Of a stretch of 61,544 nt of DNA, positions 30,664-59,983 are shown in pieces; the stretch's first letter is position 1, and every line of letters starts with the position of its first letter. The notes below the pieces were generated by a model. The model had not been told where the DNA came from. It saw only the letters and a program-made list of their open reading frames with translations, and did not search any database. The stretch is from assembly GCA_017694255.1 (NCBI GenBank), contig JADINC010000023.1, positions 1 through 61,544 on the forward strand, in the 5' to 3' direction. The translations under genes were made by a program, and so were the position numbers. This DNA is from Candidatus Enterousia avistercoris (GTDB lineage: Bacteria; Pseudomonadota; Alphaproteobacteria; Rs-D84).

Positions 30664-32088
30664 ATGAATATTCAATTTTCTGATTTGATTGAAAATAGTC
30701 CCAACGCCCCCGGTGTATACAAGATGTACGACGCCGATGGCACACTGTTATATGTTGGCAAGGCTAAAAATTTATCCAATCGATTAAAACAATATCTGGA
30801 CATATCCAAACTGGAACCGCACAAGCAAGTAATGCGCACAATGGTTGCGCGTGTTGATTGGGAAACGACCCCAACCGAATCAGACGCATTAATTCTGGAA
30901 CAGCATTTAATCAAAACCCAAAAGCCCAGATATAATATCATGCTGACAGATGGGAAAATGTACCCAATGATTGCATTAACCCAATCAGAATACCCGCGCC
31001 TGTTAAAATTCCGGGGCAAGATAACACAACGCCGTGATGTATATGGCCCATACCCGTCGGTCGCCGCATTAAACGAAACAATAAAAACAATTCAAAAGGT
31101 ATGTCGCCTGCGCACATGCACTGATACATTTATGCGCAATCGGTCGCGTCCATGCCTGCTGTACCAAATCGGCCGGTGCAGTGCGCCGTGCACAATACCA
31201 CAAACAGACTATGGCGAAAATGTTGCATTGGCGCGTCGAATTTTAACTGGCGACAGCGAACCGATAATTGCGGACTTAACCCGGCAAATGCAAAAGTTTT
31301 CCGATGCAATGGACTATGAATCTGCCGCCACCATACGCGACAAAATCGCAGCATTAACCCAAACATCAAATCGCGGTATACGCCAGAATCGTGCACATAG
31401 CGCGAATTTTGATTGGACTGGTGCGGTTAATGATTTAGAAAATTTAACCGGCATAAAATTAAATTGTGTTGGCGTATTTGATAATTCACATCTGTTTGGC
31501 AAAAGTCCTGTTGGCGCAATGATAACATTTGGTCCAAACGGTTTTATAAAAACAGGATACAGGCATTTCAAATTACGCGATGCGGCCCGTGCCGGCAATG
31601 ATATTGCCATGATGGCAGAATTTGTCCAACGTGCAACTATGCGTGGTCCAAAGCTGGATTTAATAATTGTTGATGGGGGCCCGGCCCAATGGAACATTGC
31701 CCATAAAACCGCCCCAGACATTCCAACTTTTGGCGTAACCAAAGGCGTTGTCCGCGATGGGGATGAACACTTTATTTTACCAGACGGCACCATATGCCGT
31801 GATATACCAAAAGATTCACGCTTGTTTTTATTATTGCGCGCTGTCCGCGACGAAGCACATCGTTTTGTAATCACATTCCACCGCACTGTGCGCGCGAAAC
31901 AGATGACATCATCCGTACTGGACGAAATCGATGGCATCGGTCCAACACGCAAACGCGCATTGTTAAATCACTTTGGTTCTGTTCGCGCGATTGCGGACGC
32001 CAACCTGGACGCATTAAAACGCGTACCTGGCCTGGGCAATTCGGCCGCCGAAAAAATTTATGCCCATTTTCACACAGAAGTGATATAA
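30664..32088 (+). CDS. uvrC: Excinuclease ABC subunit C (compact, 474 aa)
   Basis: GIY-YIG N-terminus (PGVYKMYDADGTLLYVGKAKNLSNRLKQY), a UVR motif region, an RNase-H-like endonuclease domain (DEAHRF) and a C-terminal (HhH)2 (IDGIGPTRKRALL..VPGLG). Confidence 0.9.
   Translation: MNIQFSDLIENSPNAPGVYKMYDADGTLLYVGKAKNLSNRLKQYLDISKLEPHKQVMRTMVARVDWETTPTESDALILEQHLIKTQKPRYNIMLTDGKMYPMIALTQSEYPRLLKFRGKITQRRDVYGPYPSVAALNETIKTIQKVCRLRTCTDTFMRNRSRPCLLYQIGRCSAPCTIPQTDYGENVALARRILTGDSEPIIADLTRQMQKFSDAMDYESAATIRDKIAALTQTSNRGIRQNRAHSANFDWTGAVNDLENLTGIKLNCVGVFDNSHLFGKSPVGAMITFGPNGFIKTGYRHFKLRDAARAGNDIAMMAEFVQRATMRGPKLDLIIVDGGPAQWNIAHKTAPDIPTFGVTKGVVRDGDEHFILPDGTICRDIPKDSRLFLLLRAVRDEAHRFVITFHRTVRAKQMTSSVLDEIDGIGPTRKRALLNHFGSVRAIADANLDALKRVPGLGNSAAEKIYAHFHTEVI
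31392..31404 (-). repeat. Exact copy of the 13-nt motif CGCGCTATGTGCA (inside uvrC)
   Basis: The plus strand reads tgcacatagcgcg. See the finding on the over-represented motif. Confidence 0.95.
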
Positions 32089-32113
32089 TGCAAGGTATAC
32101 AAAGGAGTAAACA

Positions 32114-32716
32114 ATGAAATTTTTCGTTAACTTTTTATCTGTATTTCGCATTGCTGCGGCATTTGCGATTATACCGACATTAATGTTCGGCATGTATTGG
32201 ACAACGTTTATATTGTACATATTGGCGGCATTATCTGACTTTTTCGATGGATTTTTAGCACGCAAATACAACGTCGGCACAAAACTGGGCGGTGTAATGG
32301 ATCATATTGGCGATAAATTATTGGTTGTTAATACATTTATCATGTTGCTGGCCATGATGCCAGTCTGGTTTATTGTTGTTCCAGTTATTATAATGATTGC
32401 CCGTGAATTATACATCAGCGGTTTGCGCGAATTCCTGGGCACACAAAAGATAGAAATGCCTGTACCAAAAGCACGCTTTTCAATGGGAAAAATCAAAACA
32501 ACATTACAGATGATTACTATCGCGGCATTCTTGTTGTTGTTTGCAATTGGCGCGATGATTACCCCTGAAACAGACAGTCGCACAATTATGTGGTTAATTA
32601 ATGTATTGCCACAAATTGGCATTTGGGGTACATGGTTGTCATTACTGGCATCTGTATGGTCGGCAACCCAATATACATTTACATTTGCACAAAAATTAAA
32701 ACAGATAAAAAAGTAA
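32114..32716 (+). CDS. pgsA: CDP-diacylglycerol--glycerol-3-phosphate 3-phosphatidyltransferase
   Basis: CDP-alcohol phosphatidyltransferase motif DFFDGFLARK...G..MDHIGDKLL. Has 4-5 TM segments. Confidence 0.85.
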   Translation: MKFFVNFLSVFRIAAAFAIIPTLMFGMYWTTFILYILAALSDFFDGFLARKYNVGTKLGGVMDHIGDKLLVVNTFIMLLAMMPVWFIVVPVIIMIARELYISGLREFLGTQKIEMPVPKARFSMGKIKTTLQMITIAAFLLLFAIGAMITPETDSRTIMWLINVLPQIGIWGTWLSLLASVWSATQYTFTFAQKLKQIKK

Positions 32717-32724
32717 TAAAAAAG

Positions 32725-32750
32725 TCCCATCGAATTCGATGGGATTTTTT
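32725..32750 (+). terminator. Rho-independent terminator after pgsA
   Basis: tcccatcg-aatt-cgatggga followed by a T-run. Confidence 0.8.
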
Positions 32751-32755
32751 ATGCA

Positions 32756-58131: not shown

Positions 58132-58212
58132 TCAGGTCTCCTTTTTTTACCTTGTGGTTACGTAAAACATTATATTATATATTTTTACAATTTTCGCTAG
58201 GTTTGAATCCCT

Positions 58213-58249
58213 AAAAAACACCGGATTTCATGCACATAGCGCGATTTTT
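58213..58249 (-). repeat. Motif element copy downstream of the oleate hydratase gene
   Basis: The plus strand reads aaaaaacaccggatttcatgcacatagcgcgattttt. It contains tgcacatagcgcg at 58231..58243, the reverse complement of CGCGCTATGTGCA. Confidence 0.9.
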
Positions 58250-59874
58250 CAACTGTGTAATTTTAAAAATGCCTTTAACATTGTTCGTGGCGAATATTGA
58301 TGCTTGCTGACTGGGGTTAAATCTTTATCCACCCCCATCAAATAATAGACAGCACGTTGTGCGGCCCGCACAGAATATTCCATTGTAAACACAACATCAT
58401 CTGGCACTTCGGCAAACTGACTGACAAACGCAAAATTTTCATACCCATTTGGAATAACATTTGGTCTATCGCCTGGGCGGCGCGGTTGAAACTGGGATGT
58501 AATATACGGCATTATAGACGTTCTGCAAATCACGCCACGCATCATATCTGATTGGTTTTGTCGCGGTATTTGCAAATGCCCCATCAATTCAGTCATAATT
58601 TCACGCCCAGTACATTTATACATTGGCTTTTTCACATAATCGCCGTCCACAAACATATTCAGCGAATACCCCCAAAAAATCTGTGTATCCATTGGCTGTT
58701 TTTTAAAGTGTGGCTGGCGTGCAACAACAATAGACAGACGCCATGCAGAATCTTTAAACGTCATCAACGCCCCACCACCTGGATAATTGTGGCTGAAACG
58801 TTGAATATAATCCAACAACCTGGGGTTTTTATTTATCGTTGTGGTAAAAGACATCCACATACTTTCATCGACCCGGCCACAAAACACGTCTGGATCGCCA
58901 AATTCTGGCCGGCCATCTGCAATTTTTCGCCACAATTCAAACGATGGTGCGGTATCATCTTTGATATACCGCGCCACAGTATCTGTACCGGCTTCGTTTG
59001 AATTGTCTGTCATACACCCATTTGTAAACAAAACAATATCTGCTGGTGCGACTGCAACAGAACGCTTTTTTCCATCACGCATATATACAATTTTATCTGC
59101 GACAGACGTACCATCACGAACCTGTGAAAAGTTTATATCAACAACGCGCGCCCCCAAAAGAATTTTTACACCATGCGCGCGCAGCCACGCAACGATTGGC
59201 TTTACAATTGAATCGTGTTGATTATATGCTGTACGTGCAACCCCGGCCAACGTATGTATACGCGGGAATTCATGCATAAACCTGATCATATACCTGCGCA
59301 GTTCCGCAGCACTAGACCATGGCTGGAACGCAAACGTAGTCTGCCACATTAACCAAAAATTAGTTTTAAAGAAATGCTTGCCAAACACCTGGTCTATCCG
59401 TTTTGCCCCCAAAGACTTTTCTGTTTCCATCAACACTAATTTTTCCATATCCATTCTGTCTTCGGCCGAAAAGCCCATTTTTCTAACATCCACACGACGC
59501 CCATTTTTATCAACCAGTCGCGCATTAGAATACGTTTTAAATTCTTCGTTATAATTCAAGAATTCATCTTCTAAACTAAACTTGTCAAATTCCAAAGACG
59601 GGATTTCCGTCATTATATCCTGCAAACATTCATACGTTGGTATATTCAGCATTCGCCCGCCCCGAATCATAAATCCCGAACTGGCGTTTCCTGCACCATC
59701 CAAACTGCCCCCATCTGAATCCAACGCTTCCATGATTTGAATATTTTTGCCTGGGACTTTTGCATCACGTATTAAATAAACCGCCGCCGCCAATGATCCA
59801 ATCCCCGAACCAATCATATAAACATTTGTATCTGTGGCCCGCCGTTTAATTTTGCTTTTTCCAATTTTCGTCAT
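58249..59874 (-). CDS. Oleate hydratase (MCRA family FAD-dependent fatty-acid hydratase)
   Basis: N-terminal FAD fold YMIGSGIGSLAAAVYLIRDAKVPGKNIQIMEALDSDGGSLDG...MIRGGRM. Family-typical length (541 aa). Confidence 0.8.
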   Translation of the reverse strand: MTKIGKSKIKRRATDTNVYMIGSGIGSLAAAVYLIRDAKVPGKNIQIMEALDSDGGSLDGAGNASSGFMIRGGRMLNIPTYECLQDIMTEIPSLEFDKFSLEDEFLNYNEEFKTYSNARLVDKNGRRVDVRKMGFSAEDRMDMEKLVLMETEKSLGAKRIDQVFGKHFFKTNFWLMWQTTFAFQPWSSAAELRRYMIRFMHEFPRIHTLAGVARTAYNQHDSIVKPIVAWLRAHGVKILLGARVVDINFSQVRDGTSVADKIVYMRDGKKRSVAVAPADIVLFTNGCMTDNSNEAGTDTVARYIKDDTAPSFELWRKIADGRPEFGDPDVFCGRVDESMWMSFTTTINKNPRLLDYIQRFSHNYPGGGALMTFKDSAWRLSIVVARQPHFKKQPMDTQIFWGYSLNMFVDGDYVKKPMYKCTGREIMTELMGHLQIPRQNQSDMMRGVICRTSIMPYITSQFQPRRPGDRPNVIPNGYENFAFVSQFAEVPDDVVFTMEYSVRAAQRAVYYLMGVDKDLTPVSKHQYSPRTMLKAFLKLHS

Positions 59875-59945
59875 AGTTTCCCCCCTTGTTTTTACGAATA
59901 AAATAATACCAATTTATACGCATAAATTGCATAGGACGAAAAACT

Positions 59946-59983
59946 TAAAAAATCCCGGAATTCATGCACATAGCGCAAAAAAA
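59946..59983 (-). repeat. Motif element copy upstream of the oleate hydratase gene
   Basis: The plus strand reads aaaaaatcccggaattcatgcacatagcgcaaaaaaa. It contains tgcacatagcgc at 59965..59976 and shares the 16-nt core ttcatgcacatagcgc with 58213..58249. Confidence 0.9.

Follow-up and report, generated by a model that had tools for sequence, protein, structure and literature searches.

The locus and its repeated 12-mer

The window analysed here, a stretch of 61,544 nucleotides (contig JADINC010000023.1 of assembly GCA_017694255.1), comes from Candidatus Enterousia avistercoris, whose genus comprises gut alphaproteobacteria of the order Rs-D84 with genomes of 0.75-1.0 Mb. Within the window, the 12-mer GCGCTATGTGCA is found in five exact copies beginning at 31392 (-), 32763 (+), 54054 (+), 58231 (-) and 59965 (-), as had been recorded in the original prediction, which took the motif for a candidate DNA uptake signal. 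Dinucleotide-preserving shuffles put the expectation for a window at 0.01 copies, and none of 100 shuffled sequences has as many as five. An extra 5′ C precedes four of the copies, the one at 59965 carrying a T. Judged from the comparisons that follow, the 12-mer is the core of a DNA element capable of forming a hairpin and specific to the genus Candidatus Enterousia. Its copies lie both between and inside genes:

31392..31403 (-): exact copy inside uvrC (Pfam match), antisense to the gene; the sense strand codes for A-H-S-A
32763-32774 (+), exact, and 32783-32794 (-), one mismatch: inverted pair between a pgsA-like gene and dnaJ, with an 8-nt loop and A-run/T-run flanks
49571..49582 (+): site A, GCGCTATGTACA, one mismatch, between the gene of a 288-aa membrane protein and an AI-2E transporter gene
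50660..50671 (+): site B, carrying the second allele GCGCTGGATACA, within the 30 nt that separate the convergent genes of the AI-2E transporter and ruvX
52214..52225 (-): degenerate copy inside gatA, antisense, GGTGTATGTGCA followed by TGAAATTC
54054..54065 (+): exact copy inside gatB (Pfam match), sense, encoding R-Y-V-H within the linker that joins the GatB_N and Yqey domains
54232..54243 (+): second-allele copy inside gatB, AAAAAAC-GCGCTGGATACA, codons K-N-A-L-D-T
58231..58242 (-): site C, exact copy heading the upstream region of a lipoprotein gene, 6 nt past the stop codon of MCRA (oleate hydratase)
59965..59976 (-): site D, an exact copy that immediately follows the strong terminator of an outer-membrane protein (OMP) gene and lies about 90 nt 5′ of the MCRA gene

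The 12-mer forms the centre of an element of about 25 nt composed of an A-run, c-GYGC, a 5-nt loop, GCAY-g and TGAWWTCC-GG, often with a T-run after it. A second loop class, GCGCTGGATACA, keeps the same flanks and takes the place of the first core at sites A and B in many species. At these two sites the cores differ at four adjacent positions between the shared anchors AAAAAC-GCGCT ... CA, and the GTGC...GCAC versions of both form a perfect hairpin. Sites A and B had been proposed as near-copies, a description that suits the former; the latter carries four mismatches and is yet a genuine second allele of the element. The copies do share the extended flanks claimed for the motif, and they are indeed found within coding sequence as well as paired in inverse orientation at a terminator; matches between coding and intergenic copies reach 18-20 nt.

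At orthologous intergenic sites, in species down to 86% GatB identity, the core is kept and the flanks have diverged. The placement of the core also varies, from the stem of the dnaJ terminator to the apex of a hairpin at site B. Structure thus differs between sites while the core sequence is constant, so that it is the sequence, and not one structure, that is conserved. Read on the complementary strand, the mini-hairpin pairs better, with G.U in place of C.A and a T-run after it, and the common variants at core positions 2 and 9 retain G.U or G-C pairing. Intergenic copies that stand singly all point the same way as the gene upstream of them and have the A-run before them. A search of Rfam returned no family match for the element: in the window only two tRNAs reach the gathering score, and the sole match near sites C and D with E values up to 1 is a sub-threshold rimP-leader (E 0.12) at 57532-57599, apart from the sites. 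In the literature, the 12-mer was found in unrelated primers only, and the papers on Enterousia make no mention of the motif.

Copy number and clustering

The host assembly (G000; 820 kb in 73 contigs, 91% complete, the window being contig C4) contains six exact copies against a Markov expectation of 0.06-0.15. Because five of the six fall in the window, leaving a single one in the other 758 kb, the over-representation is confined locally. With a looser pattern, eight matches are obtained in G000 and six in a closed relative (G041, 958.6 kb), compared with about 1.3 for column-permuted controls. These matches cluster, seven of the eight lying within 28.6 kb in G000 and five of the six within 27.8 kb in G041, with spans of like size in other genomes. 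Nearly all copies, of which a genome keeps 3-9, are held by a conserved block of 25-60 kb with the order dnaN-uvrC-dnaJ-gyrB-dnaA-dprA-suf-gatAB-envelope genes. The conservation in related genomes that the original prediction had proposed to check is found, copies occupying fixed orthologous positions in 80 syntenic loci of the genus.

Absolute numbers are small. Each of 81 genus genomes has between 0 and 9 copies of the four-fold degenerate core GCGCTATRYGCA, compared with 0-4 of the reversed control pattern, and 28 of them are without the core; once one mismatch is allowed, the reversed control becomes as frequent as the motif. The single match examined outside the genus proved to be a chance occurrence. 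A count of all 12-mers in G000 revealed no other word near the abundance of an uptake sequence, the frequent ones being species-specific hairpin repeats, including arrays at 5.0-6.4 kb.

Copies inside genes

The gatB copy, which is followed by TGATTTCGGG as at the intergenic sites, allows the constraint on the motif to be measured in codons. In a single-gene FastTree phylogeny of gatB, built with the motif columns masked, the taxa fall into clades I (11 taxa), II (38) and III (32). Clade I reads GCGCTATGTGCA at this position and the distant clade III reads GCGCTATACGCA (R-Y-T-H), while in clade II the segment is hypervariable and not motif-like. The synonymous entropy of the eight codons is 0.16 in clade I, against a gene mean of 0.61 (rank 11 of 504), and 0.46 in clade III, against 0.91 (rank 16 of 504); in the motif-less clade II it is 1.45, against 1.12 (rank 480 of 504). 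The eight codons therefore belong to the lowest 2-3% of the gene for synonymous variation in the motif-bearing clades, and the entropy of the Arg CGC codon follows the same division (0.0 in I, 0.2 in III and 2.0 in II). There is, in short, constraint at the nucleotide level inside gatB at the motif.

The second-allele segment at 54232 has less synonymous variation in clades I and II than any other part of gatB, and AAA AAC GCT GTG GAT ACA is nearly invariant across the 38 species of clade II. That it belongs to the family is less sure, since the GCGCTGGATACA 12-mer is also found in unrelated coding sequence specifying A-L-D-T. Two taxa, L023 and L025, share an identical divergent gatB patch, R-Y-I-R-D-Y-G-L-T (codons ~324-333, locus position ~10975). 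Both are nested beside motif-bearing sisters and lack the gatB motif through this multi-substitution patch, which indicates replacement of a short block, in mosaic fashion, in a gene that is otherwise closely related.

In uvrC, the flanks of the copy (caaaattc ... cgattctgg) are those common to the family. The orthologous segment is motif-like in 30 genus loci and tracks the lineage variant, reading A-H-S-A in species with the GTG form and A-Y-S/T in species with the ACG form; the latter also carry a second uvrC copy, 169 nt from the first. The degenerate gatA copy is exact at the orthologous position in L036, L042 and L052. The sixth exact copy of G000 lies in topA in the sense orientation, where 20 nt are identical to site C. 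This TopA segment is hypervariable across the genus, and the motif is spelled only in the lineage of the host, which reads Q-R-Y-V-H-E-I-L where its closest relatives read N-A-Y-V-H-E-I-L. In relatives, antisense copies occur in gatA and, by coordinates, also in sufB and the gene of a 530-aa OMP. Relative to transcription, the copies are thus sense in gatB and topA and antisense in uvrC, gatA and, by coordinates, sufB and the OMP gene; their presence on both strands argues for a signal at the level of DNA rather than mRNA.

Intergenic copies

The inverted pair at 32763..32794 is the clearest structure formed by the motif. It folds at -23.8 / -31.5 kcal/mol (z -4.2 / -6.1), lies between the convergent pgsA-like and dnaJ genes, and is also present in G041 and other species. 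By its predicted fold it is a bidirectional intrinsic terminator of the two genes, in agreement with the terminator hairpin that had been assigned to the copy and its inverted near-copy at dnaJ. A GC-rich hairpin with a U-run at a gene end, as expected of an intrinsic terminator, is formed by this pair and by site B in relatives; it is not formed at sites A, C and D on the motif strand, nor by the intragenic copies. The folds of sites A, B (in G000) and C are no better than those of shuffled sequences (z ~0).

Site A lies about 25 nt 5′ of the ATG of the AI-2E transporter gene and is terminator-like on the opposite strand. In ~45 of 69 species the orthologous site is occupied by the exact motif, by its ATG variant or by the second allele. 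At site B, the flanks co-vary as a stem in relatives, with the core at the apex and a T-run after it; in the flank-pairing test on relatives the stem scores 5.26, against 3.89 +/- 0.32, whereas sites A and C display no flank complementarity.

Sites C and D together form a direct repeat of ~33 nt that brackets the MCRA gene (58249-59874), itself present in only ~20 of 81 syntenic loci. Site D is preceded by an independent strong terminator. The core of site C is among the best conserved blocks of the lipoprotein upstream region, and it is kept even in arrangements beside a divergent gene, where no terminator is needed. Beside site C, metagenome contigs were seen with 817 other letters at 58248/58262, and another form skips 58248-60032 and is without MCRA. 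The region occurs in many chicken-gut metagenomes (19 runs), and four metatranscriptome runs, examined as assembled contigs, yielded no usable ends of transcripts.

The region headed by site C can be described as one further feature:

58132..58249 (-): upstream region (~120-150 nt, conserved in the 69 species) of the SodC-like lipoprotein gene 57586-58131

In relatives, its order is the motif, ATTCCTAGGGATTCAAACCTGGCGAAAA, an AT-rich TATTATA box, CGTAACCATAAGG and the ribosome-binding site, and no Rfam family matches it. The region contains two GGGATTC direct repeats 10 nt apart, each with a GANTC inside, as well as a promoter-like TGRCG-N17-TATTAT pair, and it carries TTATAGGA in species with a divergent neighbour.

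Variation between lineages

Across the genus, the copies of one genome mostly share a single variant. Clade III has ACG at sites A, B, C and gatB, clades I and II have GTG or ATG, and a GCG variant is seen in L070 (three sites) and L044 (two sites). Between gatB and site C, core identity is 0.95 within genomes and 0.89 between genomes, a difference equalled in 0 of 500 permutations. The within-genome excess is weak for the 3′ flank (C-D and B-C) and lacking for the 5′ flank; within a genome, the 3′ flanks of sites C and D have idiosyncrasies in common. The minimum number of changes at position 8 is 7 at site A, 7 at site B, 4 at site C and 1 in gatB, and these changes are independent per site; position 9 changes in the same direction in every informative contrast, of which there are 1-3. 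This pattern is suggestive of lineage-specific "dialects" of the motif across sites, which are not established because phylogenetically independent contrasts are few, the independent switches numbering 2-3.

Chromosomal position and competence genes

Map positions were taken from the closed genome G041. Its cumulative GC skew places the origin at ~175 kb and the terminus at ~685 kb, with parB at 158947-159231, topA at 199-201 kb, the cluster of copies at 327-356 kb and dnaA at 347420-348793. Both the cluster and dnaA are thus mid-replichore, and the dnaA-dnaN-gyrB neighbourhood as a whole lies ~170 kb from the skew-defined origin. The window has no skew switch, the orientation of the motif has no polarity relative to replication, and the genes near the copies share no functional theme. 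Canonical parS (TGTTNCACGTGAAACA, a 16-bp palindrome, with up to two mismatches) was not found near parB or the cluster. Another palindrome, CAGATATATCTG, occurs five times in G041, including 151189 and 158909, the latter just 5′ of parB.

DprA, a type IV pilin-like protein and a secretin are encoded in the window as had been noted, the secretin with a TcpQ-like partner, and ComEC, which the original prediction had proposed to look for, is present elsewhere in G000, on contig C50. The local pilin-like protein is acidic (pI 4.6). The hypothetical proteins of the cluster gave no match to a DNA-binding family. ParB, HU/IHF-like proteins and a basic 152-aa protein encoded at 36158-36616 of the window count as candidate DNA binders.

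What the copies may represent

We tentatively favour, at somewhat less than even odds, the reading that the copies are putative recognition sites for a sequence-specific DNA-binding factor, that is, landmark sites read as DNA. That a factor reads them, and reads DNA rather than RNA, is inferred from the sequences. A handful of copies per genome, at fixed positions and nearly all in one conserved block, would be recognised by this factor at the DNA level. The sites would share space with terminator hairpins (as stem or apex), with an upstream regulatory region and with tolerant, variable stretches of coding sequence, squeezed into occupied sequence because the genome is so compact. This reading draws on the constancy of the core where flanks and structures vary, on intragenic copies in either orientation to transcription, on the suppressed synonymous variation in gatB and on the strong, conserved clustering. 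It is also consistent with the rebuilding of a hypervariable TopA segment into a 20-nt match to site C in the host lineage, and with within-genome covariation that is seen in the core and is lacking in the 5′ flank. Several points weigh against it. The hypothetical proteins of the cluster offer no candidate factor, and the core lacks palindromic symmetry. A single reader specific for one sequence would also be hard to reconcile with the two cores, unlike at four positions, that are found at the same sites. The lineage covariation comes down to 1-3 independent contrasts, with position 8 varying per site, and sites C and D share 3′ flanks within genomes. The cluster lies 170-195 kb from parB and the skew origin, unlike parS-type sites. 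In addition, repeated short-patch copying could equally explain the suppressed synonymous variation. A more specific version, which we regard as improbable, holds that Enterousia would mark a housekeeping domain (dnaN-dnaA-gatB) by a few non-palindromic landmark sites, placed even in the coding sequence of gatB, uvrC, gatA and topA. These would be unrelated to parS/matS, in a genus that has ParB and no recognisable parS, and their core would change together with the putative factor between lineages.

The main rival, which we hold to be only slightly less probable, is that the copies are a small family of hairpin (quasi-palindromic) repeats without a dedicated reader, derived from terminator hairpins and held similar by short-patch recombination between copies. 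This could proceed by template switching, by ectopic gene conversion or by a microhomology-anchored replacement such as occurs in naturally transformable bacteria, with occasional copying into similar sequences, coding ones too, and selection arising from hairpin function at gene ends. The toggling of sites A and B between two cores with unchanged anchors would fit such copying, as would the multi-substitution patches in gatB (L023, L025) and topA and the 3′ flanks common to C and D. The clustering fits copying biased to nearby targets, the clearest copies are real terminators, and the presence of ComEC and DprA makes uptake and recombination of single-stranded DNA plausible. However, copies of 12-30 nt are short for homologous recombination, the 5′ flank displays no covariation, site C is conserved next to a divergent gene, and intragenic copies on both strands, genus-wide and with suppressed synonymous change, are hard to explain in this way. 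Less probable, and in our view unlikely, is an element acting in RNA, where a stem-loop at gene ends or in a leader would serve as terminator, attenuator, mRNA-stabilising end, processing site or binding site of an RNA-binding protein. The shared orientation of the single intergenic copies with their upstream genes and preceding A-runs, the canonical hairpin and U-run terminators of the pgsA/dnaJ pair and of site B in relatives, the G.U pairs and T-run of the complementary strand and the pairing retained by the common position 2 and 9 variants all point that way; this reading has against it the shuffle-like folds of A, B (host genome) and C, the lack of flank complementarity at A and C, the independent terminator ahead of site D, the intragenic copies on both strands, and a stem of only 4-5 bp without any Rfam match.

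The uptake signal proposed for the motif, a sequence recognised by the competence machinery in the manner of the DNA uptake sequence (DUS) or uptake signal sequence (USS), must be considered extremely improbable. It did have much in its favour: a 12-mer with extended flanks, coding copies in both orientations, an inverted terminator pair, possible dialects, the proximity of the genome-maintenance genes uvrC, topA and ruvX, and the genes for ComEC, DprA, secretin and pilin. It is ruled out, despite the competence genes, because density and distribution fail: there are six copies in 820 kb (one in the 758 kb outside the window) and at most nine in any of the 81 genomes, 28 of which are without the degenerate core, and the copies are confined to one region; further, the local pilin-like protein is acidic and no other word of the genome reaches the abundance of an uptake sequence. 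It is also very unlikely that the copies amount to a few homologous terminators plus chance coding matches. Small absolute numbers, the equally frequent one-mismatch reversed control, the second-allele 12-mer in unrelated A-L-D-T coding sequence and the chance match outside the genus would agree with this reading, but it does not account for six exact copies where 0.06-0.15 are expected, for the 18-20-nt matches between coding and intergenic copies, for clade-specific intragenic copies with suppressed synonymous change or for intergenic copies conserved at orthologous positions.

A number of further candidates were tried and rejected. A global regulator site, offered in the original prediction as an alternative, does not agree with neighbour genes that lack a theme and with copies inside coding sequence on both strands. 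For the same lack of a shared theme, an operator of a heat-shock or other regulon (CIRCE, RpoH promoter) was discarded. Two weaker alternatives that had also been offered, a binding sequence for a protein and the core of a small repeated element, stay viable. A gene-cassette or attC-like boundary is at odds with a fixed gene order in which AI-2E is always present and only MCRA varies. Consensus scans for sigma-70, sigma-54 and extracytoplasmic function (ECF) promoter cores were negative at the sites, two of which have no downstream gene. Sites linked to the origin or terminus (parS, Ter, a DnaA-box cluster) were dismissed on the ~170 kb distance of the origin as placed by GC skew and parB, the lack of a skew switch in the window and the lack of orientation polarity. 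The likeness of TGTGCATGA / TGTGGATAC to a DnaA box has a register that differs between the two alleles, and the ACG variant does not preserve it; common DnaA-box variants form no informative cluster. A mini-ORF (open reading frame) starting at the core ATG is inconsistent in frame and presence between variants, as judged by eye. A 5-methylcytosine hot spot behind the change from GCG to GTG is contradicted by the first GCGC half-site, which persists in the same genomes. Repetitive extragenic palindromic (REP) sequences with a REP-associated tyrosine transposase (RAYT) were rejected, no PF01797 match being found in the 91% complete G000, and the published NTS/SRM pattern of the Ssn-related motif (SRM) overlaps none of the sites.

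Other repeats and gene calls

Several features of the genome, separate from the 12-mer, were observed along the way. The word AAACCACCGTTT has 19 copies in G000 (on C3, C6, C7, C28 and others, and at 43163 of the window) and 14 in G041, most of them arranged as inverted pairs ~83 nt apart, and is, by its sequence, a conserved small palindromic element. ATTATATCACAA, a possible promoter element, has 14 copies on 11 contigs of G000 (e.g., C3:19677, C59:746) and 13 in G041; similar ATATCA boxes adjoin the starts of divergent genes in relatives. The commonest 12-mers of G000, CCACGGGATGACAAG and ACCTGGGTCCCG, belong to hairpin-repeat arrays around a small GIY-YIG nuclease gene (window 5084-6382), also seen on C6, C49, C54 and C58, and these repeats are absent from the closed G041. 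RuvX (50688-51392, -) is called at 234 aa, with an N-terminal extension of ~95 aa ahead of the Pfam domain, and one 678-aa ORF (G000:C10:16012-18048; L173:6013-8049 -) joins YbeY to apolipoprotein N-acyltransferase (LNT_N + CN_hydrolase); both could be fusions or start-codon artefacts.

Significance and comparison with known systems

If a factor reads the sites, they would constitute a compact, genus-wide DNA signal that constrains synonymous sites in the essential gatB, uvrC and topA of a sub-megabase genome, and a possible handle on chromosome organisation or segregation where ParB occurs without a recognisable parS. If short-patch recombination keeps them alike, the copies would be a record of how frequently very short stretches of DNA are exchanged in a gut symbiont that is uncultured and probably transformable. 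In either case, motif shape, terminator pairing and competence genes are insufficient to identify an uptake sequence, and genome-wide density must be checked.

Known uptake sequences occur about once per kb, in hundreds to thousands of copies per genome. The Enterousia element resembles the DUS of Neisseriaceae and the USS of Pasteurellaceae in its 10-12-nt core with semi-conserved flanks, its two orientations, its use of tolerant coding positions, its inverted pairs doubling as terminators, its seemingly lineage-specific variants and the accompanying competence genes. Unlike them, it has a density two to three orders lower, it is held in one block and not dispersed, and no receptor is known here. 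Bidirectional intrinsic terminators share with it the A-run, GC-rich hairpin and T-run between convergent genes, as at pgsA/dnaJ and at site B in relatives; to our knowledge, ordinary terminators have no common stem sequence across loci or species, and none lies in coding sequence with suppressed synonymous change.

REP sequences, bacterial interspersed mosaic elements (BIMEs) and the Ssn hairpin repeats (NTS/SRM; PMC11893778) are, like the element, short hairpin repeats at gene ends, often in inverted pairs, and REP/BIME and SRM co-evolve with a dedicated protein. The published SRM pattern is HGTCWY-N(0-2)-YYVSBRH-N(0-5)-WNVSBRG-N(0-2)-RNCYNB (Chenal et al. 2025, PMC11893778). In contrast to the Enterousia copies, REP and SRM are extragenic and of far higher copy number, and G000 has no match to a RAYT gene; the host genome's own Ssn-type repeats, at 5.0-6.4 kb, have a different sequence. 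A closer parallel in number and placement is offered by the sites of ParB (parS), MatP (matS), Noc and SlmA, which likewise occur in a few to a few dozen copies within one domain, some of them inside genes whose coding sequence accommodates them, and are conserved across related species. Those sites, however, are palindromes that mark the domain of the origin or the terminus, whereas the core described here is non-palindromic and its cluster lies mid-replichore, in a genus where no canonical parS was found.

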